This document shows, in pieces, positions 1 to 35,366 of a stretch of 64,000 nt of DNA. The translations under genes and the position numbers were made by a program. Under the pieces are notes generated by a model. The model did no database searches, was not told the origin of the DNA, and saw only the letters and a list, made by a program, of their open reading frames with translations. The first letter of the stretch is position 1. The number at the start of each line of letters is the position of its first letter. This stretch comes from a virus (Duplodnaviria; Caudoviricetes): the IMG/VR virus record IMGVR_UViG_3300023174_000037; one strand, written 5' to 3'.

Positions 1-53
1 CAATGTTTGCCCAATATCCAGCGGGCTAATCGGATTCTTAATTGTTGTATCAT
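1..53 (-). CDS. hypothetical protein, N-terminal part only (runs off window)
   Basis: ATG at 53 overlaps the TGA of the upstream gene (ATGA coupling); reads MIQQLRIRLARWILGKH; hand-translated. Confidence 0.5.
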   Translation of the reverse strand, partial: MIQQLRIRLARWILGKH

Positions 54-475
54 GCAAACACTTCCTCTTCTAAATAGCGTTTAAGTTCTTTGTCAGTAGG
101 GTCAACGGTGTAATTGTTTTTGAAGAATATCTCATAACTGTCACTACCGTACTTGCCAATACCATATAACTCAGTAGCATCTTCCCCGTCCCACCGCCCA
201 AAATCATAGCTCATCTCAACCAACCTTTTATAACGCACATTTACCATGCCCAGGCTCCATATCACATCCTTGATCTCTTGTTCATGTGCCCTTACAAACT
301 TGCTGGGACTAGGCCAATAGTGCATGAAGATGGGGAATACTGTTTTGACAGGTTTGCGACCAGTCTGGTTCAACATGATCACTGCCACCATGTGTTGCCA
401 GGCCGCTATCCGGCCCTCTAGGCCATCCGGCAACTGCTGTTGCACCATGAGATCATCACGCAAGGGTTGGATCAT
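50..475 (-). CDS. MBD4-like HhH-GPD DNA glycosylase
   Basis: VAVIMLNQT...LGMVNVRYKRL...ELYGIGKYGSDSYEIF closely parallels the MBD4 catalytic domain (IELHGIGKYGNDSYRIF). Confidence 0.85.
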   Translation of the reverse strand: MIQPLRDDLMVQQQLPDGLEGRIAAWQHMVAVIMLNQTGRKPVKTVFPIFMHYWPSPSKFVRAHEQEIKDVIWSLGMVNVRYKRLVEMSYDFGRWDGEDATELYGIGKYGSDSYEIFFKNNYTVDPTDKELKRYLEEEVFA

Positions 476-651
476 TGCGTTTTTTCACCTTGTATCAGCT
501 CACCGGTGACCGCATTAACTCGTGCCCCAGATTCATTAATGTAGTAAGGCTGGCACATTTTGACACCATCCCAACGTTGTCCACACCAACACTCACCCGC
601 TTCGTTTATAATACAAGTGCCACTATCGCAACATCTAGGATCTACATTCAT
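472..651 (-). CDS. small Cys-rich hypothetical protein (59 aa), absent from ORF track
   Basis: Hand-translated MNVDPRCCDSGTCIINEAGECWCGQRWDGVKMCQPYY...; ATGA overlaps with both neighbours. Confidence 0.75.
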   Translation of the reverse strand: MNVDPRCCDSGTCIINEAGECWCGQRWDGVKMCQPYYINESGARVNAVTGELIQGEKTQ

Positions 652-1457
652 CTTGGGGCAAAGTCCTGTTGTAGTTTGATATTGTCCATGAACTCTTTCT
701 TGGTTCCAGAGTCTGTGGCGAAGCTACCTTTTAATACTGTGGTCTGTGTCAGACTCGAGTGCGCCATAATACCGCGATTCTCACAACAACCATGCGTGGC
801 CTGTATATACACACCTACATTCTCTGAGTCCGTGGCTCGCATTATTTCTCTTGCGATGTCGTTGCATAGTTCTTCTTGAAGTGTGCCACGACGAGCACAC
901 CACTGAGCGATCCTAGTATATTTAGACAGGCCAATAAGTTTATTAGCGGCGATGATTCCGATGTAAGCAACACCAGACACAGGCTGGTGATGATGACTGC
1001 ACATAGAACGCAGTTCGCTACGAACAACAAGCATGCCTTCATATCTATCCGCTGAATCATTTGGAAAAGCTGTTGCATCTGGTGCTGGATCATATCGACC
1101 TCCCATAATTTCGTTGTAATACATCTTGGCCAATCGCTTGGCTGTTCCTCGACTATTAGGATCTGTTTCACGATCAATTAATAAGGTGTCTAAGACCTTC
1201 TCAAATGCTTCGGTGGCTTCGTTGATTAGGATTTCCTTATCACCTTCGTGCAAGTAGTCGCTAATGTTGTCACCAGCCCAGAAACGTTTGTTATCACGCT
1301 TCATCTTAAAGCGGATAGCATCTGCTAAGTTAGCTTCTTCGTAGCCTTTATCGCCGATTACAGCATCTTCGTAGCCGGGATGGTATGGTGCTTCTACAAC
1401 CAATTGATCTGCTTTCAATCTATCGAATGTATCTTGGCTTGTATTTTTATCTGTCAA
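648..1457 (-). CDS. folE: GTP cyclohydrolase I
   Basis: DPNSRGTAKRLAKMY, SMCSHHHQP, IGLSKYTRI, HGCCENRG motifs. Confidence 0.97.
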   Translation of the reverse strand: MTDKNTSQDTFDRLKADQLVVEAPYHPGYEDAVIGDKGYEEANLADAIRFKMKRDNKRFWAGDNISDYLHEGDKEILINEATEAFEKVLDTLLIDRETDPNSRGTAKRLAKMYYNEIMGGRYDPAPDATAFPNDSADRYEGMLVVRSELRSMCSHHHQPVSGVAYIGIIAANKLIGLSKYTRIAQWCARRGTLQEELCNDIAREIMRATDSENVGVYIQATHGCCENRGIMAHSSLTQTTVLKGSFATDSGTKKEFMDNIKLQQDFAPR

Positions 1458-1512
1458 TTATATTCTCCGAGTTATAGTCGTGGATGACCAGTATTGTTAC
1501 TATTGTAACAGT

Positions 1513-1518
1513 TATTTA
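1513..1518 (-). promoter_or_regulatory. TAAATA late-promoter-like core upstream of folE
   Basis: TCTAAATAAC on the minus strand in the intergenic gap; the same hexamer recurs upstream of many genes. Confidence 0.45.
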
Positions 1519-1526
1519 GATTTAAA

Positions 1527-2105
1527 TCAACACTTAAATGGAATTTTTCTAAGATCAGGATAAACTCCAGGCTGTGCTTTTGGCTCAATGGTAGGTAATA
1601 GCTCTAGCCCTTTGATACACAGTTCTAAGGTAGGGCAATAATGGTAACCCAAGATCAATTCGGTTTCTTCCTGCCACGGTATATTTAGATCTCTACCATC
1701 CGACCGTTGTCGGCTAAACAGCCGGTATGCATCTGGGTTATCTAGTAAGATAGCACCCACCTTGCCTAACTGTAATGGTTTGGTCCAACCAAAACTAAGA
1801 CACTGCATTGCGCCCGGCCGGTACATTCCTGGTTCAAGTCTGCGAGCACTATCCCAAATCCTTGTGTTCTTAAACTGATATTCACCGACCCAGGCTTCAT
1901 CAAGCATTTCATAATCTATATCCAGATGCGTCAACGTCATTGGAACACTTAGATATGTATATGCTGGAAACTGACATTCTTTGACCTGTTCGTACCGCAT
2001 ACACAACTCAATGGCGTGTGTGCAACCGTCAGTTAAAACCACATATGGAGCACCTGTGTATTCAGCTAAGGCTTGCTCAAATTCAAATAATTTTTGAAAA
2101 CTCAT
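1527..2105 (-). CDS. DegT/DnrJ/EryC1/StrS-family PLP aminotransferase-like protein (short)
   Basis: FEQALAEYTGAPYVVLTDGCTHAIEL, WDSA, CLSFGWTKPLQLGKVGAIL (SF-x-x-x-K Schiff-base Lys pattern). Confidence 0.8.
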   Translation of the reverse strand: MSFQKLFEFEQALAEYTGAPYVVLTDGCTHAIELCMRYEQVKECQFPAYTYLSVPMTLTHLDIDYEMLDEAWVGEYQFKNTRIWDSARRLEPGMYRPGAMQCLSFGWTKPLQLGKVGAILLDNPDAYRLFSRQRSDGRDLNIPWQEETELILGYHYCPTLELCIKGLELLPTIEPKAQPGVYPDLRKIPFKC

Positions 2106-2461
2106 TCTGACAGGTGATCTTTCTTGATTTCACGTACCGGACAACTTAATTTTTCTGCCATTAAATTTTTAAGTGCCACACGCTTATTATTATGATCTCG
2201 AATAGCAATAGCACGGCGTCCTATTTCTTCCAATGCAAGTTCTGCCTCTCGACCTGTTTTAAGTTCTGCCTCTAGGTTCCATATTTCGTTGTGTATGCGT
2301 TTAAGATCTTCGTACTCGTTGGCAATTTTTTCAAGGTTAATATGAAGAGCTTGATACTTGTACCATGCTAATTCTTCGTTGTTAGCGCCGGTACGTTGGA
2401 ATTTAATCTCAGCGATGGCTAGTCTATCAACTAATTCAATAATGGGAAATTTTAGATTCAT
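2102..2461 (-). CDS. hypothetical coiled-coil protein
   Basis: 119 aa ORF translationally coupled within the operon. Confidence 0.75.
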   Translation of the reverse strand: MNLKFPIIELVDRLAIAEIKFQRTGANNEELAWYKYQALHINLEKIANEYEDLKRIHNEIWNLEAELKTGREAELALEEIGRRAIAIRDHNNKRVALKNLMAEKLSCPVREIKKDHLSE

Positions 2462-3111
2462 AGTTTAATTTGCTTGATTAAATGATCCGTCCACATTTGA
2501 TGCCCTATTGCATTTATGTGTTGATCTGTTTTGCTCAGTGCTACTTTATTTTCTACAATAAATTCTAACATAAAATTGTCATTTTGCCTGATAATTTGGT
2601 CAACACTTTCTTTGCTAAAATAAAATGGCAAGTATTGGCATGGCACTTTGAGGGCAACACTATCCATACAGGCTTCAAAATTACAGCGTTGTTCGTATTC
2701 CGAATAGTAGTTGTTAAACCAGGAATCATAAAATTCTACTGTAGAATTTTTAGGTTTTGCAGACCAAACCCATCCATCATTCTGTTTAGCATTAAAACTT
2801 CTAAATAAAGTTTTTGTTTCTGTTTGGTAAACTAACCCTGTTTTGGCTGTAGTAACATGAATTGGATTATTTGGATCAAAAACAAATGATTTTCTTGACG
2901 GATGACTCCATCCAATTATGATTATGTCATCATGATTGATTTTTTTATAATTTTCTAAAAAAGAATGATAGATAAAAAAATTGTCTGCTCCTTCTTGAGC
3001 AAAATTGACATATTCACAATCTAATTTTTTAGATAATAAAAATGGCCAAGACTGTTGTTCTTCTAGACCATGCGCCAAACACATACTATGGCCAAAGATC
3101 CATAATTTCAT
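2458..3111 (-). CDS. SGNH/GDSL-like hydrolase or acyltransferase
   Basis: N-terminal IFGHS, GADN block, C-terminal DQHINAIGH. Confidence 0.6.
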   Translation of the reverse strand: MKLWIFGHSMCLAHGLEEQQSWPFLLSKKLDCEYVNFAQEGADNFFIYHSFLENYKKINHDDIIIIGWSHPSRKSFVFDPNNPIHVTTAKTGLVYQTETKTLFRSFNAKQNDGWVWSAKPKNSTVEFYDSWFNNYYSEYEQRCNFEACMDSVALKVPCQYLPFYFSKESVDQIIRQNDNFMLEFIVENKVALSKTDQHINAIGHQMWTDHLIKQIKL

Positions 3112-4136
3112 AGATATAATCCTTCAATTTCTTTGGGATTATTCAATATATTTTGTATTTTAATGTTACTAATATTTGGTCTACATGGAGCACAAAATTC
3201 TACACGAGTTTTATTATATATTTCATAATGTCTTTCGTTCAACCAACTATTTCGGAAGTCCCCGGAATCCCAGTCAGCCAATTCAAATTGTGGATTTCCT
3301 TTGCCTTCACAACAAATGTATATTTTGCCGTCGGCACAAAATACAGGAAAGTGAAACATCTGATGACACTTTTTATAATTACGCGGCAGTGTTTTATTTT
3401 GATTGGCGTAGTAGGGCAACTTGTATTCTTGACTATATTTGTCTAACCTAGAAATAGTCTCTTCGGTAATAGGATAGGCTTGGTTGTTAATAATTACCGG
3501 ACGAAAATACAGCATACGTCCACCTAGTTGTTTAACCAACTTAAACAGATCGTTCATTGCTTCGTCAGTGTCGTTTAACGGATTAATTAATGCCTTAAAA
3601 TCAACATTGACTCCGGCTTGGATTAGGCCACGTGCATTGTCGCATACCTTAGTAAACAAACTTTTAGCAGTTAGGCTCCGACGTATTTTTTCATACAATG
3701 GTTGGGTTCCAGCATCAATATCAACACCAATCCAGGCCAACTTACGCAATTTATCCACGTGAACATTATCTAACAAACGATCTAAATTGCTGCCATTGGT
3801 AGTGATACTTCCAAGGAATCCTAGATCTATTGTGTGTTCAATGACTTGTTCGTAGTTGACCAATACAGTAGGCTCTCCTCCACCCGGATATGTTATAGTA
3901 TGCGTTGTTCCGTAACTGTTGGGAGTATGCGCTCTCCAACCGGCTAATTTATCTAGCAAGGAAATGTATTCTGTATATTTTTTTTGCACAGGCATTGCTG
4001 CTCTAAAGTCTGCACTGTTGCAGTAATAGCAGTCTTGATTGCATACATTAGTTAAATCAATGTCTACTTGTGCGGGCAATATTTTCATTGTGCCCTGATT
4101 TTTCATCCAATGAACTAGTTCGGCATATTGATACAT
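3108..4136 (-). CDS. radical SAM protein with SPASM/twitch-like C-terminus
   Basis: CNQDCYYC, GGGEPT, C-terminal C...ICC...CAPC. Confidence 0.9.
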   Translation of the reverse strand: MYQYAELVHWMKNQGTMKILPAQVDIDLTNVCNQDCYYCNSADFRAAMPVQKKYTEYISLLDKLAGWRAHTPNSYGTTHTITYPGGGEPTVLVNYEQVIEHTIDLGFLGSITTNGSNLDRLLDNVHVDKLRKLAWIGVDIDAGTQPLYEKIRRSLTAKSLFTKVCDNARGLIQAGVNVDFKALINPLNDTDEAMNDLFKLVKQLGGRMLYFRPVIINNQAYPITEETISRLDKYSQEYKLPYYANQNKTLPRNYKKCHQMFHFPVFCADGKIYICCEGKGNPQFELADWDSGDFRNSWLNERHYEIYNKTRVEFCAPCRPNISNIKIQNILNNPKEIEGLYL

Positions 4137-4139
4137 CAG

Positions 4140-5093
4140 TTACTTATTGTACCAAGTCCATGCGTGTTGGATAACATCAGTTAACCCAAATTTTGGTTGC
4201 CACGAACTTGCACTCATAAATTTAGTAGGATCGGCAACAAGTTGAGCTGGATCTCCACTGCGTCTTGGACCATGCAAGTAGGCTATGTCTTTACTCAGCA
4301 CAGCAGATGCCGCCTGCAATACTTGTAGATTGCTATGACCTTGGTTGGTACCTAAATTATAAATGTTGGATTTAACGGAAGGATCAATTGCGGCAATATG
4401 AGCCTCGGCTAAATCCTCTACGTGGATATAATCACGAACGCAGGTGCCATCTGGGGTTTCATAGTCGGTGCCATACATAGTAAAGTCTTTGCCATCGCGA
4501 ACACTTTCTAAAAGTCTAGCAACAATATGTGTAGCACCTGGTGCTTGTCCATGACGACCTTGACTATCAGCACCACAGGCATTAAAATAACGGAATGAAA
4601 CAAAGTCCAAACCATATGCACGTTGGTAACTTCGCAACATCCAGTCAATCATCAATTTGCTTTCACCATATGGGCTAATTGGCTCAGTAGGATCAACTTC
4701 CTGCACAGGAGTCATAATAGGATTGCCATAGGTTGCGGCACTGCTACTAAAAATAATCCTAACTTGTTTGTCGTGATTTTTAACCAGATAGTCTAATAAA
4801 ATTTTAGTCTTGACAAAATTGTTATTGTAGTATTCTTCTGGATCCTGCACACTAGGACCAACCAGACTAGTACCAGCACAATGAACAATGGCATCAGGAC
4901 AAAATCTTTTAATAGAATCCAGTCCTATCTCACCAGAGTAATCCCCAGTGTGCCATTGACACGGAACAGGAATCAAATTCCCAGGTGGCATTACTCGATC
5001 AATAGCCAGCACATCGTGACCAGCATCTACTAATTTTAATAAAGTCTCGCCACCAATAAATCCTGCGGCACCAGTAACTACAACTTTGCTCAT
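4140..5093 (-). CDS. galE: UDP-glucose 4-epimerase
   Basis: GAAGFIG, FSSSAATYG, YGESK, RYFNACG, DGTCVRDYIHVEDLA. Confidence 0.95.
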   Translation of the reverse strand: MSKVVVTGAAGFIGGETLLKLVDAGHDVLAIDRVMPPGNLIPVPCQWHTGDYSGEIGLDSIKRFCPDAIVHCAGTSLVGPSVQDPEEYYNNNFVKTKILLDYLVKNHDKQVRIIFSSSAATYGNPIMTPVQEVDPTEPISPYGESKLMIDWMLRSYQRAYGLDFVSFRYFNACGADSQGRHGQAPGATHIVARLLESVRDGKDFTMYGTDYETPDGTCVRDYIHVEDLAEAHIAAIDPSVKSNIYNLGTNQGHSNLQVLQAASAVLSKDIAYLHGPRRSGDPAQLVADPTKFMSASSWQPKFGLTDVIQHAWTWYNK

Positions 5094-6295
5094 CCTTCAA
5101 TTTTCCTTACGTGGTATTTGGCTTGACTCACATGATCTCGATATCTATTGCCTGCACGATTCCATACCTCGCCTTGGCCTTCTAAGATATCCACAATACG
5201 ATCTACTGTGCCATCTGTCCAATTTGAGATTAACCCCATGTTGTGATGTGGTGTTTGTAACAAGTTTTCTAACTTGTGGTATGCATCGTCGATACTCCAG
5301 GGCACATATAATCGGTTGGGGTCGTTAGCAAAAGTTTCAGGAAAGCTACGGTAAGCAGGATAGAGAACGTTACAGCCCAAAGTGTCTGCTTCAGAGACTG
5401 TGTTAGAGACCCAGTCTTGTAATGCACAATTAAAAAGAACACGAGTATCATTAAGCAAATTATAATAGTCATTTTTCTTCAAGTTCTCATAAATTACGAG
5501 TTTGCCCTCACGTTCTAACTGACGGGCACGATTGATATATTCAGGATTGTTACTGCGTAATGGGCCACCTTGGAACACAGCAAACTCAACGTTTTTAACA
5601 CGACCCTGTGCGTGATACATTTCAATCAAGTCCATAAAGAATCCAGGTTGCTTCTCTTGATCAAAGCGGGCGGCAAAACCCACACGCATTCGACGTTGGT
5701 CAAACGGTTTGATATTTTGTGAGCCACCTATACGCTCTAGCACTTCCGCTTTGCCAAATGCCAATCCACTAATATTGTAGATCGGTGCTTCCCAACCTGC
5801 AATACGCATATGAGCAACCATTTCTTCATTAGTTGCCAATACACCAGTGGCAAATTCATTAACCATTTTTTCATAGATGCCCATCCACTTTGCCATACCC
5901 CACACATGAACAAAGTCATCTGGATCAATGGCCTGAGCAAGACAGCGAACATAAATCCTAGGACGCTGGTTAGGATCCACTTGATCGAGAATATAAGGTA
6001 AGCTCTCGATACCGGGTTGAAACATGTCTTCAAAATAGATGACATCTTCACTGGTAACTTCTCCATTACGCATCATTTGAACTAGATTCATCATCTGGCT
6101 CATGCTGAAATAGGACCTGCCGTGTGCGTCTAGAACCTGACCTACACTAATACTTTGTGTGTTGTCAATAGTGATGCCAGGAACATAGACTACATCTAAG
6201 CCGCGTCGGTCAAACACACGACGGTTCCATTCTGTGAGTTGTAGTGTATAACGGGCCTCGTAACTCTCAAGACCCATATAAAATAACTTACGCAC
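5090..6295 (-). CDS. GT-B fold glycosyltransferase
   Basis: ARFDQEKQP, DWVSNTVSEADTLGC, YRSFPE resemble the C-terminal Rossmann domain of retaining GT-B enzymes; GTG start at 6295 preferred because the ORF-track extension runs through the neighbouring gene. Confidence 0.75.
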   Translation of the reverse strand: MRKLFYMGLESYEARYTLQLTEWNRRVFDRRGLDVVYVPGITIDNTQSISVGQVLDAHGRSYFSMSQMMNLVQMMRNGEVTSEDVIYFEDMFQPGIESLPYILDQVDPNQRPRIYVRCLAQAIDPDDFVHVWGMAKWMGIYEKMVNEFATGVLATNEEMVAHMRIAGWEAPIYNISGLAFGKAEVLERIGGSQNIKPFDQRRMRVGFAARFDQEKQPGFFMDLIEMYHAQGRVKNVEFAVFQGGPLRSNNPEYINRARQLEREGKLVIYENLKKNDYYNLLNDTRVLFNCALQDWVSNTVSEADTLGCNVLYPAYRSFPETFANDPNRLYVPWSIDDAYHKLENLLQTPHHNMGLISNWTDGTVDRIVDILEGQGEVWNRAGNRYRDHVSQAKYHVRKIEG

Positions 6296-6515
6296 GGCGG
6301 TGTCCTGAGAATCTACGGCTATCTTCGTCCCACATGTTCTTGGCATTCTTGCCTTGGGTGAACTTGTTATACTGTTGCCAAGCATAACTGCGGAAGTTAT
6401 ACAAGTCTTCCTCTCGATATCTGTAGCCATAATCTTTACAGAATTCCAAGTAGTTTGACAAATCTTCTAATGCTTGAAGTGCTCTTGGATTTGCACGAAA
6501 TTGGGTTTTGCCCAT
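6288..6515 (-). CDS. hypothetical protein
   Basis: 75 aa ORF with an AAGGA ribosome-binding site. Confidence 0.75.
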   Translation of the reverse strand: MGKTQFRANPRALQALEDLSNYLEFCKDYGYRYREEDLYNFRSYAWQQYNKFTQGKNAKNMWDEDSRRFSGHRRA

Positions 6516-6526
6516 GATATTTCCTT

Positions 6527-6976
6527 TTAAATTACAATTGAATGACTTGGACGGGTGAGGTTATAATTAATTGAGCATCCGTTTTCACCGTCCTCGGACA
6601 CTTCAATTGTAACACAACGATTGGGATAACGTGCAGCAATTTGGAGATATAAGTCATCGGCAATCATTTCGCAAGACTTAAAGTCTAATTCTAAAACGGT
6701 ATTCGCACCGCTATACAACGCTTCGAGCCATCGTTTGAACTGGATAAACTCGATGTCTCGGTCATTGTGCCACACATCGATTGACACCCTGAAATGAAAT
6801 ATATGGCGATGAGGATTAGCAAGGAACGCAACATTGTATTCATCGCTAGTATTTAACTGTGGATCTGTTGCGGCTGCTGGATAACAATGGATTCCTTCCT
6901 TACGGAATGTAACCCAAATCTGTCGACCTGCGGCTTCTTTGATGCGCTCAACTGTTTCTCTTTCTGCTTGTATCAT
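6527..6976 (-). CDS. queD: QueD-like 6-carboxytetrahydropterin synthase (T-fold)
   Basis: EGIH...HRHIFH metal-binding histidines, IEFIQFK, SCEMIA, VSEDGENG; located between the TGT-like gene and folE. Confidence 0.75.
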   Translation of the reverse strand: MIQAERETVERIKEAAGRQIWVTFRKEGIHCYPAAATDPQLNTSDEYNVAFLANPHRHIFHFRVSIDVWHNDRDIEFIQFKRWLEALYSGANTVLELDFKSCEMIADDLYLQIAARYPNRCVTIEVSEDGENGCSINYNLTRPSHSIVI

Positions 6977-7299
6977 TTTTGTAATAACTCCATAGTTACA
7001 ATTTTGCCGATTGATTCTGACAAGTCTTGGTCAGAAGTGACGATATGTAATTTGACCCGTTGCTCATCTTTTTTGTAGTCGTACCATCTGGTCTCTATCA
7101 GTGTGCCGCCATTGACGGCCTGCACACTAAACCTAATAGGGTCTGGCAGCTCTATACCATTTGAAATGTCGTCGTCAATTATTGAAAGAGAATTAGATAT
7201 GGCACGACCTTTTCGGCGTACCTTAATCTCATCCTCTCTAATATCACGATTGAAATCCCAACCCCATTTCATTAAGTTTGACCATAACCATCTAATCAT
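6973..7299 (-). CDS. hypothetical protein
   Basis: 108 aa ORF coupled in the operon. Confidence 0.7.
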   Translation of the reverse strand: MIRWLWSNLMKWGWDFNRDIREDEIKVRRKGRAISNSLSIIDDDISNGIELPDPIRFSVQAVNGGTLIETRWYDYKKDEQRVKLHIVTSDQDLSESIGKIVTMELLQK

Positions 7300-7835
7300 T
7301 GTATTACTTCGTCCTTGGTATATTTAGACCAGTCAGTAAACACTGATCTTTTTTGTAAGTCGTGTAGACTGTGACACCACACTCCGGGATTGGTTGCGGC
7401 AAAATCCTTGTCATCCAGTTTGAGTGTAGCATTATAACCCAATTGATTGATGTAGGGCAACTTTACTGAAATCATAGGAATAAAGTTGTGATTCTCTGTT
7501 AGGCCACTTTCCAACAGGCCTTCTACACAAGTGCTATCAATGTCCAAGGTACATAGAATGTTCCGTTCCAACACTGAATGAATCATGGTCTCCCAAGGTG
7601 CCCAGCCTGCTCCATCGTTTACAGCCAGCTGAGGAAAACTCATATTGGCTCCAAAATACACATGTTCAATGTGTTGACTAGAATCCAGTAGCGACCGAGA
7701 ATCATTTACTATTTCAAGAATTTTATGATAGTCTTGAATACCGACCACAAACAGAGTTTTCTTGCCGTAAGCAGGGGTATGTTCAACTTCAGTTCCTATA
7801 AAGAAACTAACGTCACTGTGTCCATCTCTGTTCAT
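7296..7835 (-). CDS. hypothetical protein directly downstream of the TGT-like gene
   Basis: 179 aa ORF; start overlaps the TGT-like stop. Confidence 0.8.
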   Translation of the reverse strand: MNRDGHSDVSFFIGTEVEHTPAYGKKTLFVVGIQDYHKILEIVNDSRSLLDSSQHIEHVYFGANMSFPQLAVNDGAGWAPWETMIHSVLERNILCTLDIDSTCVEGLLESGLTENHNFIPMISVKLPYINQLGYNATLKLDDKDFAATNPGVWCHSLHDLQKRSVFTDWSKYTKDEVIQ

Positions 7836-9559
7836 TATACTTGATCTTGTTCTAATTGATCTAATCGGGCCAGTTGGTCCGGGCTAAAGTCTTCGTCTAA
7901 TTGTATACTATCTTCATCGGTGTTGTCAACATCAACTTCTTCAAATAAGGCATTAAATTGACTGTGTGCATTTTTGGCTTTCTTACCTTTGAATCCACGA
8001 GTACCTACAATGTCCATCCAATAACGATCATAGTGCTCAATGATAGCTTCGGCTTCAGCACGATCGGGTGTGGCAAATATAGCATCCACAATGTCTTTGA
8101 ATCGAGCATGGTCGCCATTTTGATTCCACATCATAGCAGGCCACGATCCGTTATCATATTCACGATTGGCACGTTGTACCGCTTCAAGATGCATCCAAAC
8201 ATTATGACCCATCAGCAATGCATAACTGAAACTGTCCCAGCTTGTTTTACCTTCTTTGCCAATTTTGTTTAGCATACCAGGTTGGTAGTAACAAACATCT
8301 TTCATTTGCAGTTGTAGACTAATTGGGCTTTCATCAAAGTGATCAACCAACCCATCTGCTACCACAGCTTGACCGTACGGACGAGTGTCAGTGCTATACT
8401 TTTTGTCATCGGCAATAGGACTCATACGATAGCACCACTTGTCATTATGTGGCAAATCAATGTGGTGATAAACCTGTCCGTTGGCAGTGGCCAAGAACGG
8501 ACTGGCACAGTCAAACGAGATTGTAAATGCTGGATTAACATACTTACGCACAGCACGTTGGATGTCTGTTAGTAATACTGCCCACTCTAGTTTGCTGGTG
8601 CCCAAGAAGTGCATCCAATCGTGAACACCTTCTTTGAGTAATCCATCGTGGCGTAGTGCCACAAGTCTACGCAATACCAAATGAACATCACACATGTTCT
8701 GTCCGCCCATACTCCATCCATCGAAATGTGTGTCTGGATATAAGTTAGGGTCACAATAGTGTTTCATTGTGTCATACCAACGATCAGCGTCGGCATGATT
8801 GGCGCCTTGTAGAACATTCAGCACTTTCATGCCACCATTCTTAGCACCTTTACGATGGCGCATATAGTAATCATTGTTATACTTGGTGGCCGCTACTGCT
8901 TCTTCTAATGTTGTGATACCACATTTGTCGCTGGCATTTTTATCATGTATGACCCAGGTCGGAATATCAAGTGTCATGCCATAATCTGAAACACCATCCA
9001 ACCATTTAACTACCGCCTCTCGTTTCTTCTGTGCAGCATCTAACAAGTTCTGGTAGTTCTTAACATGATCAATCTTGACATACTTTTTGTTGCCATTCTT
9101 ATCGTGCTTGGGCGTTCCGTCTGGTTTAAGATCTAATACGTGTTCAACACCTTTGGCCTTGAGTTCGGCCATCTTAGCCACGACCTCGGGACTAGTTGGG
9201 TCACGCCATTCACCTTCCCATAAGCCTTTGGCAATTTGGAATCCACCCGAGTCGCCTAACATAAGAGTACCTGGCTCACGATTACGAACCATGTCTTCAG
9301 ACCAGTCCTGCTTGGTAAGATCCAAGTTGGCATGTCCACCCGAGTAAAGCGACCATCGGTACGGAAACAGACCTTTGGCGCTGTTAAGCCAGTTCATCTG
9401 TTCCATGTCTTTTATTGCAGCAGGCATACGTGCCGGATCCACATAAGGACCATTAACCGGATCACGTTGTTTGCCTATGTAAGTGGCATAGAAGCCACTG
9501 ATAGCCGGCAGGAATACAGCGTAATCGTTTTGCTTGGCGGTTAAGTTATCTTGGGTCAC
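7835..9559 (-). CDS. TGT-family guanine transglycosylase (DpdA-like)
   Basis: LGDSGGFQ, MTLDIP, VLQG, DGWSMGG, HFLG, SFDCASP, GHN motifs in TGT order; clustered with queD and folE. Confidence 0.88.
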   Translation of the reverse strand: MTQDNLTAKQNDYAVFLPAISGFYATYIGKQRDPVNGPYVDPARMPAAIKDMEQMNWLNSAKGLFPYRWSLYSGGHANLDLTKQDWSEDMVRNREPGTLMLGDSGGFQIAKGLWEGEWRDPTSPEVVAKMAELKAKGVEHVLDLKPDGTPKHDKNGNKKYVKIDHVKNYQNLLDAAQKKREAVVKWLDGVSDYGMTLDIPTWVIHDKNASDKCGITTLEEAVAATKYNNDYYMRHRKGAKNGGMKVLNVLQGANHADADRWYDTMKHYCDPNLYPDTHFDGWSMGGQNMCDVHLVLRRLVALRHDGLLKEGVHDWMHFLGTSKLEWAVLLTDIQRAVRKYVNPAFTISFDCASPFLATANGQVYHHIDLPHNDKWCYRMSPIADDKKYSTDTRPYGQAVVADGLVDHFDESPISLQLQMKDVCYYQPGMLNKIGKEGKTSWDSFSYALLMGHNVWMHLEAVQRANREYDNGSWPAMMWNQNGDHARFKDIVDAIFATPDRAEAEAIIEHYDRYWMDIVGTRGFKGKKAKNAHSQFNALFEEVDVDNTDEDSIQLDEDFSPDQLARLDQLEQDQV

Positions 9560-10278
9560 TTGCTTTGTGCTGGAATAATGTAGGTGTAAACAGCAACTCC
9601 GGAATCAACTGTGATTTGAGCTGCACCATCATCACTGATACGCATGACTTTATCGCCGGTCAAATCAAGAATACTGATCACAGTCTTAATCGGCCATGAC
9701 CATGTGCGTTTAAGTGTTCCTGTTACTCCTGGTTGGAATACAAAGTTGCCAGCGTGTGTGCTGTGGTCACCAAAGAAAAACTTTAGATCACCGTTTTCAG
9801 TTTTGGCTTGAAAATTGACTTCTTCAGCATTGGCCTGTGCCTGCATCTTAAGTCGCTGAATAGAGGCCACTGTGGGTTCAAACTCGATGTGCCAGTTGAC
9901 ACCTTTGAATTTAACTGTCTTGGCTTTTTCAGTTACAATTTCACTGGCCATAAAACGATAGGTATTTTTAAAGTCTTTAGTGGCATTTTGAAAACTGATA
10001 CCATCGGGCTCACCGGTGGTTTTCTTTGTAACACTGAGTTCAGCGCCTTCTTTATACTCCGGCAAATTCAAAAGAATATTAAGTTTTGCCAAGTTTGGCA
10101 TACCAAACAGTCCAATAAATTCTGGCACCGGGTTAGCATACTTGCCCTCTACCACTACGCTACGATCCTCGGCTACACCAAAGATATCAGTTGACTTGTC
10201 GTCACCGGTAATTTTAACCAGGTCAATGCAACCTAATTTTAATGTATGTTCTACTAAGTCTAGTAAATGATCTTTCAT
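9556..10278 (-). CDS. DNA polymerase sliding clamp (gp45/PCNA-like), putative
   Basis: About 240 aa beta-rich protein ending YTYIIPAQ like PCNA-type clamps; lies next to polB; AGGAG precedes MKDHLL at 10278. Confidence 0.6.
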   Translation of the reverse strand: MKDHLLDLVEHTLKLGCIDLVKITGDDKSTDIFGVAEDRSVVVEGKYANPVPEFIGLFGMPNLAKLNILLNLPEYKEGAELSVTKKTTGEPDGISFQNATKDFKNTYRFMASEIVTEKAKTVKFKGVNWHIEFEPTVASIQRLKMQAQANAEEVNFQAKTENGDLKFFFGDHSTHAGNFVFQPGVTGTLKRTWSWPIKTVISILDLTGDKVMRISDDGAAQITVDSGVAVYTYIIPAQSK

Positions 10279-10309
10279 ATATTTCTCCTTGTGTTTGATT
10301 ATACGTGGT

Positions 10310-11287
10310 TTATTTAGATTTTGCAACAGGTTTAGGTAATATTTTTGCTAAACTTTGGCCGCCACGCAACGAAGTTAACTTTCCGGGTTTTCGAAGTTCT
10401 ACCCATACACTAGGCGAATCGGACTGATGACAAAATATTTCTTCAAATCCTAAATAGTTTGCCCAACCTCTAACCAATGATCCAGGAGTGTAACCAGTAA
10501 TTCCTTGTTCAACTGCCTGCATGGCCATGTAACGATCACAATCATTAAAAGTCATGGCCAACACCCCGCCTGGCAATAATTTTTGATAAATTTCTTCAAG
10601 ATATATTTTTACCATAGCAAACGGACGGTAATCTAAATAATTATAGGCCAAACAAAACCCAATCTGTTGATCAGGTAATCGATTTAAGATTGGATGATTA
10701 AACGATTCGTTGATTACGTAGGGCCGCAACCTATTTTGATACACTGGATTAAATTGTGACAGTGTAGGTTCTAACAAATAATGACTTTCGTCTACTAGAT
10801 ACAACGGATCACTAGCTGTCATTTCGTGTACGAACGGCTCCAACATTGGATGTATGATCATGGCCGGATGTTTCCAATCGCAGTAATTAGCAACTCGGCT
10901 TTTTAATGCTGATTCTGTTTCTGCATCTCTTCGAACTGGTTTATTACGATGTAACCCTAGGTAATTTTCTGTTTGTGCGTAGTTGGTTTCAAGATATTTT
11001 TCATATTCAGTGTAATTTCGATGCAACCATCCTTGCCCTTGTTCAGAAATTAATCGTTGCACTTCAGATTTTAATTCTAGTAATTCTTCTTCAATGCTGA
11101 TAAACACTGATTGCAATGCATGATTCTTTTCTTTTAATTCTTGTTGGAAACCAGCGTCAACACCGGCTTCTGGTACGTCAATGCGTTCAATAATCAACTC
11201 AAATCTGCTACGAGATTCCCGTTGAAGATCTTGCATAGTGAGTTCTTCTAAGCGGTTATTTAAGCGTATTAATTCAACTAAATTCAT
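10310..11287 (-). CDS. coiled-coil N-terminus plus class I SAM-dependent methyltransferase-like domain
   Basis: QIGFCLAYNYLDY...EIYQKLLPGGVLAMTF resembles the class I MTase C-terminal half; start chosen at MNLVEL. Confidence 0.6.
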   Translation of the reverse strand: MNLVELIRLNNRLEELTMQDLQRESRSRFELIIERIDVPEAGVDAGFQQELKEKNHALQSVFISIEEELLELKSEVQRLISEQGQGWLHRNYTEYEKYLETNYAQTENYLGLHRNKPVRRDAETESALKSRVANYCDWKHPAMIIHPMLEPFVHEMTASDPLYLVDESHYLLEPTLSQFNPVYQNRLRPYVINESFNHPILNRLPDQQIGFCLAYNYLDYRPFAMVKIYLEEIYQKLLPGGVLAMTFNDCDRYMAMQAVEQGITGYTPGSLVRGWANYLGFEEIFCHQSDSPSVWVELRKPGKLTSLRGGQSLAKILPKPVAKSK

Positions 11288-11288
11288 A

Positions 11289-13946
11289 TTACCATTCAAA
11301 CAATGTTTGGAAAGTATTTTCTGTGTTAGTAGCACTGGCCAAGTCCCACTCCAACACACCTAACAAGTTATCTAATTTTTGATCTACAACCGTGGCTTCC
11401 ATTTCAGAATGATCAAAAGGTAGATCTTTAAACCATTGCGGTATATGAGTTTCGTCTGTGGGATAACCTATGCTGGTCCATCCTAGTGGATTACTTTTGA
11501 GTTTGCATACAATGGTTTTCATTCCATCCACGATCTGCATTGAATATTTGTCGCCGTTCATCCTACGCAAATTATTCCAATTAAGTGCAGCTCGCACATG
11601 CCCAGGCATGTTGGCTTTGCCTAGTCGTTCTTCTTCCTTGCCATACTTGGTCAAGTTGTTGACACGTTTAGGACTGCCTTTTTCCCAGCCTGGACGTTCT
11701 TTAAAAATGTATTTGAACTCTCGAATTTTTTCAATAATCTGGTCACGACTTGCGCCTACCAACACTTCGTTAAGAATTTCGCTTAAGAAATCTTGAATGA
11801 CCTTGGGAGTGTCACTGCGTTTTAGATCAAGACCCATGGCTTTTACTTTACCAGGACTTCCGTGTGTGTCTACACGTTTGTTCTCTTTGTCATAATACAT
11901 GACAGCATAACGCTTTTTAGTAATAAACAAGCCCTTGCTGGCCACAATCTCTCGCCCACCTTTGATCACTGACCCCATTTCACGTGGCACGTGGAATGCA
12001 GTTTCCATAAAGCCAGGAAAGCTATCGTTGACTTGGTCAGCAATACTGTTATACAGTTGAACAGCAATTTCTCTGTTCCAGGTCATTTCACCTTTGTCAA
12101 TTGATTCTTTAAGCACAGGATAGGCAGTAAAGTAACACGAGTCTGTGTCACCATAGATAATACTTTCACCTACGTGATCGTACTTGCCAGTGATACATTC
12201 GTTTACATAGGCATCCATGTGCCGGGCAATGGCACGACCTGTCAAAGTAGTTGACTGTCCAATACGTTTATCAAAGAATCTACAACCGGGATTAAGAATA
12301 GCACCATACAACGAATTCAAGTTAATTTTCTTAACTAGTTGTCGCTTGTCCCAATATTCCTCGTCTTCTGGCGTCTTTGCTTCTTTTAGTTTGGCCTGCA
12401 TGTCTTTACGTTCGGCGTACCAACGTTTTAACAAGCCTGGGATAACTGCTTCCTTTTCAAAAGTAAAGATTGTGCCATTGGCACTGAGCATCCATGGCCG
12501 GTTACTATCAAATATGATTTTCCATACATCAGCGGCACTGTGAACCGATTCTTCTCCGTCTTTCCAATCAATGGTAATTTCTGTTCCAGGCTCAGTATTT
12601 ATAACTGCGGAATATTCTAAGCTACCAAATAATCCCTCCCATGCCGCAGCAAAACTTGATCCACTACGCATTTTGTCTTGAATATAATGGTCAGTCATTA
12701 CGGGACGTAACTGTCCAACAATAGTTTCTGGTCCCATGTTAAGCGCACGAATGGCACTTGGATACAATGAGTTGATGTCTATTGATCCTACATATTCGTG
12801 GATGCCTTTGCGAGGATAAGCAACATAGGCACCTGCCGCTTGTGTGTCTTCGTCTGAGTAACGTTCTTTACGGTTCGGCACAACCATGCCACGTTCGTGC
12901 GCTTCATTGATAATGGCCTGTTCGGTTACGGCTACAGCACCCATTGTGGTCTGTAGTAGCACAGTATTTTCATGTGCCAGTGTATTAGCTAGATCCAAGA
13001 ACTTTAGTTTCTTGTCCAGCTTGGCAAGAATCATTGTGTCTTGACGGTTGTATTCAATAAACTTTTTGAAATTTTGATTATACAGTTGATCCAATGTGCC
13101 TTCGAACACTGTCTTGGTTTCTTGCAGTTCGTATTCAGCAATGGCATCCAAGCTATAACTATGACGTTCTTCATAAGTATATTTGCGATACAGTTGCATA
13201 TAGTCCATATGCACACGACCAATCAAGTCATATGTTTCGTTTTCTGCACCAAAGCGTTCAAACATACGTTTCTTGGGATATTGATTCCACAGACAAAATC
13301 TGCGGGTGTCGTCCTTGCTGAGCACACGAGTGACACGATTTACTGTGTAGGGTATATCATAGCCCTCACTGTTCCATCCAGACAATGCGTCAGCATCTTC
13401 GATGAGATCTAAAAATGTTTTTAACATCTCATCTTCACGTTCAAACACAATGCAGTTTTCAAATTCTCGAGCAATTTCATCTGCGGTTTCGCGACTCATG
13501 TGTTTGGGCGGAACAACTAGTGTAACCATTTGCTCTAGCCATTGCAAATAGACACTAATAGCAGTAATAGCATTGAATGGGTCTGTGGTTGGCGAAAATC
13601 CACGTTCTGGATCAAAGTCCACTTCAATGTCAAAAAACGCTACATTCAGTTTTGGGCCATCTTGGCCTTTGTAGTTGTCTTCTAGGCAACGAAAAATTGG
13701 ATTAATATCGGATTCATACAGTTGTTTGCCACTCTGTATACGAATTTCTTTACGAAACTCTTTGTTGTTACGAGTGCTGAATCTGCTAACAGGTGTGCCG
13801 AATAGGCTTTGGAATTTACCACGAGGATCCTCGTAATAAAAAATGTAGTTGGCCGGATATTCCTGATAGACTCTGCGGCCATCCTTCCGTTCAACCACAT
13901 GAATACGATCGTGTTCACGATCAAATAGTGCATCTACGTAACTCAA
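11289..13946 (-). CDS. polB: family B DNA polymerase with 3'-5' exonuclease
   Basis: FDIEV, GWNSEGYD, YNRQD (ExoI-III); DINSLYP, KINLNSLYG, YGDTDS (polymerase motifs). Confidence 0.98.
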   Translation of the reverse strand: MSYVDALFDREHDRIHVVERKDGRRVYQEYPANYIFYYEDPRGKFQSLFGTPVSRFSTRNNKEFRKEIRIQSGKQLYESDINPIFRCLEDNYKGQDGPKLNVAFFDIEVDFDPERGFSPTTDPFNAITAISVYLQWLEQMVTLVVPPKHMSRETADEIAREFENCIVFEREDEMLKTFLDLIEDADALSGWNSEGYDIPYTVNRVTRVLSKDDTRRFCLWNQYPKKRMFERFGAENETYDLIGRVHMDYMQLYRKYTYEERHSYSLDAIAEYELQETKTVFEGTLDQLYNQNFKKFIEYNRQDTMILAKLDKKLKFLDLANTLAHENTVLLQTTMGAVAVTEQAIINEAHERGMVVPNRKERYSDEDTQAAGAYVAYPRKGIHEYVGSIDINSLYPSAIRALNMGPETIVGQLRPVMTDHYIQDKMRSGSSFAAAWEGLFGSLEYSAVINTEPGTEITIDWKDGEESVHSAADVWKIIFDSNRPWMLSANGTIFTFEKEAVIPGLLKRWYAERKDMQAKLKEAKTPEDEEYWDKRQLVKKINLNSLYGAILNPGCRFFDKRIGQSTTLTGRAIARHMDAYVNECITGKYDHVGESIIYGDTDSCYFTAYPVLKESIDKGEMTWNREIAVQLYNSIADQVNDSFPGFMETAFHVPREMGSVIKGGREIVASKGLFITKKRYAVMYYDKENKRVDTHGSPGKVKAMGLDLKRSDTPKVIQDFLSEILNEVLVGASRDQIIEKIREFKYIFKERPGWEKGSPKRVNNLTKYGKEEERLGKANMPGHVRAALNWNNLRRMNGDKYSMQIVDGMKTIVCKLKSNPLGWTSIGYPTDETHIPQWFKDLPFDHSEMEATVVDQKLDNLLGVLEWDLASATNTENTFQTLFEW

Positions 13947-14288: not shown

Positions 14289-15062
14289 TTAAATCTCCTT
14301 TGAATGTTGATTATATACTAATTTTACACTGTGGTCAATAAAAAATTCATCAAATGATTGCCAAATTTGATCTAACGGTACGGCGTAACCTTGATCATAA
14401 TTTTTTACGTTGTAGGTTATTGGAATAACATTATTCTTATTCAACTGTGAAATTAAGTTTGGAAAGAACTTTTGGACAATATCCCGATTACAAATTGGTG
14501 GACTACATAAATTTTGATATTTAATTCCGCAATCAAGCGAGGTAATAATGTCAGTGGCTAGTCTATTTAATGGATACCACTGTATATAAGAATCTAAACA
14601 AATTTTGTCTAACCAAATTTGTGCCTTAAGATCGTAAAGTATATTTTTGTTCATTAACCGGTCTGACAAACTAGATAATCGTGTTATATAACTGTTAGGC
14701 ATGGCACTGATAGCCTGCTCTAACAACCAACGATTGCGACCATAACTGGCAACAGGGTAAACTAAATGCGGGTTAGCATCTGTGCTGGTTCTGGTTGAAT
14801 AAACATCCAGGGTGCTGATATACACTACTTGATTATACTTGCATTGTTCTAGTAATTTGATAATCTGTTGACAGTCATTTAAGTCTTTAGATGGGTCTTC
14901 TGTAACTGAGATTCTATTGCCTGTTGGTGCAGCAACAATTACAACATCTGATGGCTGTTCTATCAGGGCATTAGATTCATTTCGATTGTAGATAATGCTA
15001 TTGGGCAATTGTCGATGTAACGCCTGGCCAACTAGTCCCGAACCAATAATAGAATATTTCAT
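14289..15062 (-). CDS. NAD(P)-dependent epimerase/dehydratase-like protein
   Basis: IIGSGLVG, YISTLDVY, YGRNR (SDR-like YxxxK variant). Confidence 0.7.
   Translation of the reverse strand: MKYSIIGSGLVGQALHRQLPNSIIYNRNESNALIEQPSDVVIVAAPTGNRISVTEDPSKDLNDCQQIIKLLEQCKYNQVVYISTLDVYSTRTSTDANPHLVYPVASYGRNRWLLEQAISAMPNSYITRLSSLSDRLMNKNILYDLKAQIWLDKICLDSYIQWYPLNRLATDIITSLDCGIKYQNLCSPPICNRDIVQKFFPNLISQLNKNNVIPITYNVKNYDQGYAVPLDQIWQSFDEFFIDHSVKLVYNQHSKEI
14310..14338 (-). promoter_or_regulatory. sigma70-type promoter
   Basis: TTGACC-17 nt-TATAAT upstream of the dsbA-like gene. Confidence 0.75.
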
Positions 15063-34592: not shown

Positions 34593-35366
34593 CTATTTTT
34601 TCCTAGCCTTGTGTTCGTCGATATAGTCTCGACTTTCCTTAATGGTTTTAATTTTATTCTTTAGCCGTTGGATATTTTCTTGTATTCGAGCCAATTTGTG
34701 CTCACGCATTACACTTACAGGATTGTCTCCAGCAAATACTGCTTCTTGTCCGTATACAACAGCTTCTTGAGGAGCATTGACTCCCAGACGTTGATCAAAT
34801 ATGGCCCGCAGTTCCGGGTCCGGTGATCCATACAGGTCTGTGATAATTTGATCACGGTCTGCATCGTTGCCATCCAGGTATAGTTTGCGAATTTGGCTGG
34901 CACTGTTGGCATCTACGCCCTTGACACGAAAGTTCACAGTTGGAGTCACTGCAACATAACCGTGCTGTGTCATTGGCTTCATACCTTTTTTGTTGTCAGG
35001 CAAGGGCTGTAAGTAACTGGCAGATCCGTCTTTTTTGGGTGCAAAGTTAAACCGTTCAGCATCTTTTGCACTGACAGCAAACACCAACACAGTGTTGGCT
35101 CGTTCTTCATCGGACAAACTGCTTGTAATTTCCGCAGCTTGATAGGGATTTTTTACTTTGACAATGTGGCCAGACGGAACACCCAGTTTGGTCATCATTG
35201 TTACTTTGTCTGCGTATTCAAACGGGCTGGTTTCAGGATCTTGAACACCACTGCTGGCAATATACACATTGTTATCGCCAAATTGTTGAGTCAGCCAATC
35301 ATAACTGGCCATATGACCTAGATGAAAAGGATGAAAGCGTCCGGGATATATTACAAGATAATTCAT
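34593..35366 (-). CDS. HIGH-family cytidylyltransferase-like nucleotidyltransferase
   Basis: YPGRFHPFHLGH, SPF, SASQIR. Confidence 0.8.
   Translation of the reverse strand: MNYLVIYPGRFHPFHLGHMASYDWLTQQFGDNNVYIASSGVQDPETSPFEYADKVTMMTKLGVPSGHIVKVKNPYQAAEITSSLSDEERANTVLVFAVSAKDAERFNFAPKKDGSASYLQPLPDNKKGMKPMTQHGYVAVTPTVNFRVKGVDANSASQIRKLYLDGNDADRDQIITDLYGSPDPELRAIFDQRLGVNAPQEAVVYGQEAVFAGDNPVSVMREHKLARIQENIQRLKNKIKTIKESRDYIDEHKARKK

Follow-up and report, generated by a model that had tools for sequence, protein, structure and literature searches.

The 64,000-nucleotide stretch of viral DNA analysed here (IMG/VR record IMGVR_UViG_3300023174_000037, Caudoviricetes; hereafter the window) comes from a freshwater jumbo phage in which a set of guanine-replacement genes begins right after the DNA polymerase gene. 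Comparisons of gene content indicate that a GT4-like glycosyltransferase (GT) is fixed within this island, which appears to be a deazaguanine island of the DpdA/DpdL type devoid of QueC, and that, in the clade of the window, the epimerase GalE and a short DegT-like protein (mini-DegT) are fixed there as well. We give an even chance to the idea that these genes lead to a sugar-bearing deazapurine linked to DNA modification. The more specific proposal, that the virion DNA of the window phage and of the other GT-bearing phages encoding DpdL contains a glycosylated 7-deazapurine, a DNA base undescribed in the searched literature, is made tentatively, at somewhat short of an even chance. To our knowledge, the 7-deazaguanine bases found in DNA (preQ0, preQ1, G+, ADG, 7-carboxy-7-deazaguanine [CDG], 7-deazaguanine [DG], methyl and formyl forms) carry no sugar, and the DNA glycosylations that we know of sit on hydroxymethyl-pyrimidines. 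None of the papers found by the literature search describes a deazaguanine in DNA that carries a sugar.

In IMG/VR, 596 relatives were retrieved by a pattern scan. The best 80 loci (60–99% identity of the DpdA-like protein) were compared gene by gene, and the 22 related loci with at least 9.9 kb of sequence downstream are referred to below as the long loci. The common gene order is family B DNA polymerase (PolB), a 349-aa protein, a clamp-like protein, the DpdA-like transglycosylase, a 179-aa protein, in some loci a 108-aa protein, DpdL, a 75-aa protein, GT, GalE, mini-DegT and FolE. This order recurs in dozens of loci, a synteny far beyond chance. The core genes, with the positions of their open reading frames (ORFs) in the window, are the following:

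7835–9559, minus strand: DpdA-like transglycosylase of the tRNA-guanine transglycosylase (TGT) superfamily, 574 aa (fold and catalytic Asp motifs)
7296–7835, minus strand: 179-aa conserved protein, whose start overlaps the DpdA-like stop (22 of the 22 long loci)
6527–6976, minus strand: predicted DpdL, a 149-aa T-fold QueD paralogue (LxxxHRHxF motif and homology; 22 of 22)
6288–6515, minus strand: 75-aa small conserved protein, always between DpdL and GT (20 of 22)
5090–6295 (ORF open to 6430), minus strand: putative GT4-like GT-B glycosyltransferase, about 400 aa (predicted structure, homologues starting at about codon 46; 21 of 22)
4140–5093, minus strand: UDP-glucose 4-epimerase GalE (TIGR01179, 1.4e-89; 21 of 22)
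1527–2105, minus strand: mini-DegT, a 192-aa protein resembling pyridoxal phosphate (PLP) enzymes of the sugar aminotransferase family (PF01041, 3e-09; 18 of 22)
648–1457, minus strand: GTP cyclohydrolase I FolE with an N-terminal extension of about 80 aa (PF01227, 1.1e-38 over residues 83–260; 21 of 22)

An earlier note on this DNA, made from the sequence alone, had proposed that a GT and a GalE lodged in a deazaguanine base-exchange locus could add a sugar to the inserted base. The linkage of both genes to the dpdA- and queD-like genes holds among the relatives, and their occurrence independently of dpdA was not borne out. The sole long locus without a window-type GT (L049) carries in that slot a GT of the type found in the cultured Pseudomonas jumbo phage PA5oct. 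Across the window clade, the GT is 66–90% identical. The spacing between core genes varies (0.2–2 kb in L002–L081, for example in the interval from GT to GalE and in that from DpdL to the 75-aa gene) and the core genes persist, which may reflect frequent small insertions, possibly of homing endonucleases.

The association of the GT with DpdL extends to cultured phages. Homologues of DpdL occur in 29 phage records, among which 11 groups were examined for the GT. A hidden Markov model (HMM) of the GT, built from the window clade only, detects a GT within 4 kb of DpdL in six groups: PA5oct (1e-14), ACP17 (2e-15), X1/BUDD (X1, 2e-21), BUCT-ZZ01 (7e-213), Phosso (2e-9) and BCSR5 (1e-19). The two genes are directly adjacent in BUCT-ZZ01, ACP17, PA5oct and Phosso, where the protein is annotated 'glycosyltransferase'. 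No such GT was found within 10 kb of DpdL in the other five groups (Cellulophaga phage phiST, RHph_I1_18, Bakedbeans, D479 and Ahp1). ACP17, X1 and BUCT-ZZ01 encode a different DpdA of about 420 aa, unlinked to the window enzyme by BLASTP; since the GT lies near DpdL also where the DpdA is of this type, it appears to track DpdL and not one DpdA lineage. Furthermore, reverse tblastn searches with two GT queries retrieved almost only DpdL phages, with the exception of a Xanthomonas/Erwinia group in which the GT lies beside GlmS- and BshB-like genes. The GT4 of PhiXhv-12, which has this GlmS/BshB-like context, was considered as a counter-example and set aside as an out-group, as it is without a match to the window-clade HMM.

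Three of these phages deserve a description of their own. In the T4-like cyanophage Synechococcus phage BUCT-ZZ01 (L096:12016-13545), the GT is 66% identical to that of the window and the adjacent DpdL 39% identical, beside a DpdA of the other type; the identity of the GT suggests either its transfer between lineages or a very strong constraint. PA5oct (Wroclawvirus, EST35_0314-0322) shares with the window the order polymerase, clamp-like protein, long DpdA-like protein (31% identity), GT (EST35_0317, a distant homologue), DpdL (54% identity), QueE and RNase H. However, its island covers about 8 kb compared with about 30 kb here, and its cassette is without GalE, mini-DegT and FolE and carries only a 172-aa SDR-like (short-chain dehydrogenase/reductase) fragment, between DpdL and QueE. 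The virion DNA of PA5oct resists cleavage at G-containing restriction sites; this was interpreted as modification of the G in GA or GG, and the base was not identified (PMC12191111). In Phosso (L101:9379-11454), DpdL, GT, FolE and QueE follow the polymerase and clamp genes, and the long DpdA-like gene lies about 170 kb away, by primase/helicase genes; therefore, the module can be split.

The 574-aa transglycosylase belongs to a family with more than 7,000 metagenomic homologues scored, some of them on contigs of up to 345 kb, and 901 cluster representatives. It has no match in Pfam (including PF01702), PHROGs or NCBIfam, nor in the Protein Data Bank (PDB) by phmmer, and the best TGT match of its family profile in the PDB is not significant (E 2.4). 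Its AlphaFold2 (AF2) model, which like the conservation analysis derives from an alignment of 61 sequences, has a pLDDT of 90.6. The top 50 Foldseek matches of this model in the PDB are all TGTs (E ~7e-8). An exhaustive VIA search retrieved archaeosine TGT (Z 17.6), QTRT2 (16.1), bacterial TGT (15.7), DpdA (15.2) and Cap10 (13.9), so that a gap separates these five TGT-superfamily clusters (Z 17.6–13.9) from unrelated TIM barrels (Z ≤11.6). D103 (in GDSGGFQ) and D350 (in SFDCASPF) are invariant in the 61 sequences and D198 (in LDxPT) is found in at least 90% of them; we take these residues to be the equivalents of the catalytic D102, D280 and D156, respectively, of the Z. mobilis TGT. The CxCxxC...H zinc site is not conserved in the same 61 sequences, which retain, after D350, only C423 (69%) and H452 (89%).

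Cultured homologues of this protein are found only in PA5oct-like Pseudomonas jumbo phages (31% identity), in Sinorhizobium phage Phosso and in Vibrio phage 2.275.O. After it, the Vibrio phage encodes QueF, a transporter of the YhhQ type, a protein annotated for queuosine biosynthesis, a nucleophile aminohydrolase and FolE; the PA5oct gene lies near QueE. Because of its TGT fold, of its Asp motifs and of the deazaguanine genes that neighbour it in the Vibrio phage, the 574-aa protein appears to be a divergent, long DpdA-type enzyme, for which base exchange on DNA is predicted. It shares with the bacterial DpdA that inserts preQ0 in DNA (7ui4) and with the phage DpdA1-4 the TIM-barrel TGT fold (Z 15.2 over 299 residues) and the Asp motifs, but displays no significant sequence match to any TGT or DpdA of solved structure, whether searched as a single sequence or as the family profile, about 150–250 extra residues, no conserved zinc cluster and no DpdB or DpdC partner. 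The HMM of the window family weakly detects the DpdA of ACP17 (7e-9) and the DpdA3 of phiST (3e-4).

The 179-aa gene is always coupled to the DpdA-like gene, and a homologue lies directly upstream of the DpdA of Acidovorax phage ACP17, which is of an unrelated type (HMM 2.8e-24). The protein has 26 invariant residues, including E16, E18, H58, D98, K139, D141, D142 and H155, and no match in Pfam, in the PDB (profile search) or in the Atlas. It is a candidate accessory enzyme or subunit. A prediction of its complex with the DpdA-like protein gave a score of 0.00, with the 179-aa partner poorly folded, and thus does not bear on whether the two bind.

The gene at 6527–6976 had been labelled QueD-like in the earlier note. 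It does encode a T-fold paralogue of QueD, but one that differs from canonical QueD and appears from its motif and homology to be DpdL, a predicted CDG decarboxylase. DpdL is defined by the change of CxxxHGH to LxxxHRHxF in a QueD paralogue, and its role as a CDG decarboxylase is proposed and unproven (Cui et al. 2023, NAR, PMC10516641). In 28 aligned homologues, L52-x3-H56-R57-H58-x-F60 and H30 are invariant or nearly so. The window protein finds by tblastn the position of the phiST DpdL (CGPG_00067, gp040; 34%, 3e-8) and ACP17 (51%, 1e-36), the corresponding HMM values being 2.9e-18 and 7e-56. Its neighbours in the Atlas partly carry PF01242, its profile has no match in the PDB, and its hhalign similarity to the canonical QueD of the same phage is weak (probability 28%, E 6e-4) and lies in the C-terminal half, which corresponds to T-fold strands.

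The genes that would feed this enzyme lie in part beyond the window. A 131.5-kb public contig (L092), found by means of identical proteins, extends the sequence by 20 kb leftwards of the window start. This extension encodes, in order, the ferredoxin FdxA, an 871-aa FG-GAP protein, a canonical QueD/PTPS (PF01242), a dTDP-glucose-4,6-dehydratase-like SDR, RfbH (433 bits for a cut-off of 423), two transketolase halves, an FkbM methyltransferase, another SDR, an XGPRT/HGPRT-like phosphoribosyltransferase (PRTase), QueE (TIGR03365, 1e-14), NadE, an NDP-sugar dehydrogenase and RNase H. The canonical QueD and QueE sit 4–13 kb left of the window start. QueE homologues are found about 2–12 kb past the FolE/HhH end of the cassette in four of five long relatives. 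The earlier suggestion to look for queE, queC and queF just outside the window bore fruit for QueE, found together with a canonical QueD, but no QueC was found. Indeed, none occurs among the Pfam and NCBIfam matches listed for the scanned window ORFs and the larger genes of the next 20 kb, a scope of the 64-kb window and 20 kb of flank in a genome of some 350 kb, the matches of the 35 window ORFs being the first 25 of 41 matched families. There is also none in the complete PA5oct genome, and QueC stayed below cut-off in four partial relative contigs. Three candidates for QueC or QueE were rejected: a 263-aa PP-loop protein taken as a possible QueC is NadE (162 bits), a 273-aa downstream protein is not QueE, and the radical SAM protein encoded at 3108–4136 matches no QueE model.

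As no QueC was found, the pathway should stop at CDG: it should run from FolE through QueD and QueE to CDG and then to DpdL, and not follow the FolE/QueD/QueE/QueC route to preQ0 that had been assumed. Given both the lack of a detected QueC and the DpdL motif, the base is most likely 7-deazaguanine or another CDG-derived base. The TGT/DpdA fold, DpdL, FolE, QueD and QueE support the original reading of the region as a 7-deazaguanine base-exchange locus.

Two further observations concern this flank. The genes from QueD through the NDP-sugar dehydrogenase, before RNase H (L092:4899-16585, 4–16 kb left of window position 1), form a second block of sugar genes, which looks like a deoxy- or branched-sugar pathway wedged in the deazaguanine island. 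The XGPRT/HGPRT-like PRTase (L092:12128-12661) is separated from QueE by one small ORF, and a similar PRTase lies directly beside QueE in BUCT-ZZ01 (L096:7471-7932); such an enzyme could recycle the guanine freed by base exchange or make a deazapurine nucleotide.

The limits of the GT gene itself needed correction. Its longest ORF (446 aa, 5090–6430) overlaps the conserved 75-aa gene by 143 nt, and the relatives, about 400 aa long, align to it from residue 45/46 only. On this basis, the GT gene covers about 5090–6295, with a start that is probably a GTG at about 6295, and the 75-aa ORF counts as a genuine conserved gene. The GT misses the threshold of Glycos_transf_1 (PF00534, E 0.009, 16 bits for a cut-off of 26.4). 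Its AF2 model (pLDDT 79.7) retrieves by VIA 165 chains at Z ≥8, the nearest including sucrose-phosphate synthase (6kih, Z 24.5 over 340 residues, rmsd 3.6), BshA (23.9), WlaC (23.7), PimA (22.8) and TreT; tetrahydrobiopterin (BH4) glucosyltransferase (5zer) reaches Z 20.8 and T4 alpha-GT Z 19.2. Among the Swiss-Prot models of the AlphaFold database, it matches TuaC, WcaL and MshA. The model therefore points to a GT4-like GT-B enzyme, with an NDP-sugar as predicted donor and a deazapurine as predicted acceptor.

The neighbouring sugar genes are of unequal clarity. GalE is recognized at equivalog level (TIGR01179, 300.2 bits for a cut-off of 262.3). The aminotransferase had been described as DegT, and PF01041 is indeed detected (37 bits for a cut-off of 19.8) with the PLP lysine kept; however, the match is confined to the N-terminus and the protein is a mini-DegT, not a full-length enzyme. 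It lacks the two-domain DegT architecture (about 360–400 aa), and only profile positions 27–84 and the Lys block align, the latter to the block around the PLP Schiff-base lysine in sugar aminotransferases of solved structure. K109, which aligns to this block, is invariant, and so is D85. A truncation artefact was rejected, as relatives display the same short length (192–199 aa in the 31 loci with a complete, delimitable ORF); the Atlas also contains viral clusters of similar proteins, about 195 aa long.

We propose that the island would be the core of a replication-linked system of DNA guanine hypermodification. FolE, QueD and QueE would make CDG, which DpdL would decarboxylate to 7-deazaguanine, and the DpdA-like enzyme would swap this deazapurine for guanine in the phage DNA after replication, as proposed for phiST, a swap with which the 'modified G' of PA5oct, a distant relative, would agree. 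With an NDP-sugar as donor, the GT would then glycosylate the deazapurine, either on the base in DNA, like the T4 glucosyltransferases, or on a precursor before insertion. This sugar would be supplied or tailored by GalE and mini-DegT and, in the window lineage, also by the radical SAM protein and by the second, downstream deoxy/amino/branched-sugar pathway; the tailored product in that lineage would be an amino, deoxy or branched sugar or one of galacto configuration. The two conserved proteins of 179 aa and 75 aa may generate the acceptor group or help DpdA. The sugar would be attached to a side chain that these two proteins build or, by a C- or N-glycosidic bond of an unusual kind, to the electron-rich pyrrole ring. 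The benefit for the phage would be a virion DNA shielded from restriction and other DNA-targeting defences.

A precedent for the last step would be the T4 alpha- and beta-glucosyltransferases, which are, like the GT described here, phage GT-B enzymes in a DNA-modification context, the use of a UDP-sugar being predicted here. They differ in their acceptor, 5-hydroxymethylcytosine instead of the purine analogue proposed here, and their sequence similarity to the window GT is nil (8% identity). No hydroxymethylase was found in the Pfam results for the window ORFs (first 25 of 41 families for 35 ORFs).

Several points weigh against a glycosylated base. The sugar is deduced from gene content. The C7 of plain 7-deazaguanine bears only H and offers no hydroxyl for an O-glycoside; a sugar on this base would therefore imply an unknown acceptor-making enzyme (the 179-aa protein, the 75-aa protein or an altered DpdL) or an unusual linkage, or else the sugars go elsewhere. 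The glycosylated-base idea of the earlier note thus keeps the conserved linkage of GT and GalE in its favour but meets a base without an obvious acceptor. In addition, the nearest structural matches of the GT model are small-molecule and lipid GT4 enzymes and not DNA enzymes. The GT also appears not to be obligatory for the pathway, because five of the 11 DpdL-bearing groups are without it within 10 kb. Furthermore, the 80 metagenomic loci form one clade, so that inheritance explains part of their synteny. Finally, the downstream RfbH, 4,6-dehydratase, transketolase halves and FkbM resemble enzymes that make the sugars of O-antigens or capsules, and could be used for glycans of the virion or the host.

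The lack of an obvious acceptor on the base and the small-molecule and lipid matches of the GT would fit a DNA that carries plain 7-deazaguanine deoxynucleoside (dDG), or its CDG counterpart dCDG, with GT, GalE, mini-DegT and the downstream sugar genes serving virion proteins, host envelope glycans or another metabolite. RfbH, the 4,6-dehydratase, the NDP-sugar dehydrogenase and FkbM are typical of surface-polysaccharide sugars, and phiST, whose dG is fully replaced by plain dDG (PMC10516641), follows the same FolE/QueD/QueE/DpdL logic. The phiST system indeed shares with the window FolE, QueD, QueE, a DpdL with LxxxHRHxF, a TGT-superfamily transglycosylase, the absence of QueC and a position beside DNA polymerase genes. 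However, its transglycosylase is a DpdA3 of 259 aa and no GT, GalE or DegT is found within 10 kb, whereas the window combines a 574-aa transglycosylase of another subfamily with a GT4-like GT, a GalE, a mini-DegT and a 179-aa protein fixed in the cassette. A role of the GT in glycans is also hard to reconcile with its genomic position, since it is embedded between DpdL and FolE in a replication module and not among structural genes. Its proximity to DpdL, mostly direct adjacency, recurs in six unrelated cultured groups with two DpdA types, the family is found almost only in DpdL phages, and in BUCT-ZZ01 the GT and DpdL, in spite of their very different degrees of identity to those of the window, are still immediate neighbours. 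We thus hold plain dDG to be unlikely, though it is the strongest competitor of the glycosylated base.

A lower probability is given to a GT that would glycosylate a soluble pterin or deazapurine intermediate never present as such in DNA, the sugar trapping, solubilising or activating a precursor and being removed before or during exchange. The model for such a reaction is the cyanobacterial UDP-glucose:tetrahydrobiopterin glucosyltransferase: FolE, a PTPS-family T-fold enzyme, an SDR and a GT-B constitute the enzyme set of pterin glycosides, 5zer is among the structural matches of the GT, and the PRTase beside QueE here and in BUCT-ZZ01 shows free-base or nucleotide-level chemistry. Nevertheless, the 5zer match is not specific, as many other GT4 enzymes score above it, the SDR is a GalE at equivalog level and not a classical SDR of the sepiapterin-reductase type, and DNA is indicated as the final target both by the transglycosylase and by the restriction data on PA5oct. 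This makes a soluble glycoside improbable as the final role of the GT.

Glycosylated queuosines occur in eukaryotic tRNA, where the sugars sit on the cyclopentenediol. The eukaryotic enzymes that make mannosyl- and galactosyl-queuosine resemble the proposed one in placing a sugar on a 7-deazaguanine derivative, for which GalE would supply UDP-galactose, but they modify the cyclopentenediol of queuosine in tRNA, no queuosine-specific gene is present here, and they are absent among the listed structural matches of the GT. That the TGT-like enzyme would modify phage or host tRNA, and the island boost or alter a queuosine-type tRNA modification, is very improbable: in spite of the existence of such glycosides and of the fact that the solved close structural matches other than DpdA all act on tRNA, the gene sits in a DNA replication module after the polymerase, the pathway is without QueC, QueF and QueA/QueG, the zinc site conserved in tRNA TGTs is missing from the DpdA-like enzyme, DpdL-type systems yield dDG in the DNA of phiST, and the PA5oct virion DNA is itself refractory at G-containing sites.

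The remaining genes of the region, listed below, give the context of the glycosylated-base proposal and its lineage-specific variation:

11289–13946, minus strand: family B DNA polymerase PolB, context only (PF00136 2.6e-37, PF03104 2.5e-18; upstream in 80 of 81 loci)
10310–11359, minus strand: 349-aa protein between the polymerase and the clamp-like gene, function unassigned (no Pfam match; tblastn matches in 70 loci)
9556–10326, minus strand: 256-aa clamp-like protein, phrog_12062 (3e-30)
6973–7299, minus strand: 108-aa protein, variably present (6 of 22 long loci; no family match)
3108–4136, minus strand: radical SAM enzyme, putative lineage-specific accessory (PF04055 9e-10; 2 of 22)
2458–3111, minus strand: 217-aa lineage-specific protein, earlier labelled SGNH (no family match; 0 of 22)
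2102–2461, minus strand: 119-aa protein travelling with the radical SAM gene (only in L002 and L077, adjoining that gene; 2 of 22)
472–651, minus strand: 59-aa ORF, translationally coupled (start/stop overlaps; a called gene also in L088; tblastn homologue in no other locus)
50–475, minus strand: MBD4-like HhH-GPD DNA glycosylase, putative variable accessory (E 1.3e-13 to the MBD4 glycosylase domain; 4 of 22)

The ORF listing confirms an unbroken run of minus-strand genes from 13946 down to 50, mostly coupled as had been described, with 4-nt ATGA-type overlaps at most junctions (475/472, 651/648, 2105/2102, 2461/2458, 3111/3108, 5093/5090, 6976/6973, 7299/7296, 7835/7835 and 9559/9556). It adds to the earlier gene list three small conserved or coupled ORFs (6288–6515, 2102–2461 and 472–651). 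The TGT-like, GT-B, GalE, radical SAM, FolE, MBD4-like and PolB labels are upheld by fold or family matches. The clamp label is tentative and derives from a 30% identity (E 3e-32) to the Phosso gene annotated sliding clamp beta, the PA5oct homologue carrying the annotation 'structural protein'. The SGNH label finds no support, as the 217-aa protein has no match in Pfam (even at E ≤1), PHROGs or NCBIfam; its gene is confined to window-type phages and is found in none of the 80 IMG/VR loci. The radical SAM gene is present only in the window type, L002 and L077, and the best NCBIfam match of its product is viperin-like (8e-14, below cut-off). The MBD4-like glycosylase matches the HhH-GPD family weakly; in its alignment to the MBD4 domain, the GIGKYG hairpin aligns and the Asp of 'PTD' matches that of the MBD4 'PED'; the 'glycosylase' adjoining DpdL in Phosso was compared with it and proved unrelated. 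Judging from their distribution, the radical SAM, 217-aa, 119-aa and MBD4-like genes are lineage-specific add-ons and not core genes.

Just upstream of the polymerase, a 257-aa protein (14289–15062) displays a sub-threshold epimerase/SDR match. Further along the window, a cytidylyltransferase-like protein (34593–35366) could, with the downstream NadE, serve NAD or sugar-nucleotide metabolism. The region 17049–64000 carries a cargo of jumbo-phage type, with a dCMP deaminase, a GH19 chitinase-like lysin, PhoH, a ClpB-like AAA+ protein, DnaJ and ferritin, as well as family-less proteins of 1231 aa and 2072 aa, a 674-aa protein with GNAT domains and two more radical SAM proteins. A near-identity DNA search of the 10-kb stretch against 50,697 phage records gave no match; the phage stretch recurs in freshwater and lake metagenomes from eight studies (2013–2025).

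The six cultured GT-bearing groups, with the GT-less phiST as a natural control, make the idea of a glycosylated deazapurine directly testable, and the transglycosylase family is very abundant in metagenomes. DpdL and DpdA from phiST or ACP17 gave no dDG in Escherichia coli, and other enzymes may be needed (Cui et al., PMC10516641). The GT-bearing module may explain this failure, and also the 'modified G' of PA5oct, a therapeutic candidate. If true, a sugar on a deazapurine would define a DNA base of a new chemical class, with consequences for restriction, CRISPR, glycosylase-based defence and the END nucleases that sense hypermodified DNA, and also for metagenome sequencing artefacts and enzymatic DNA labelling.

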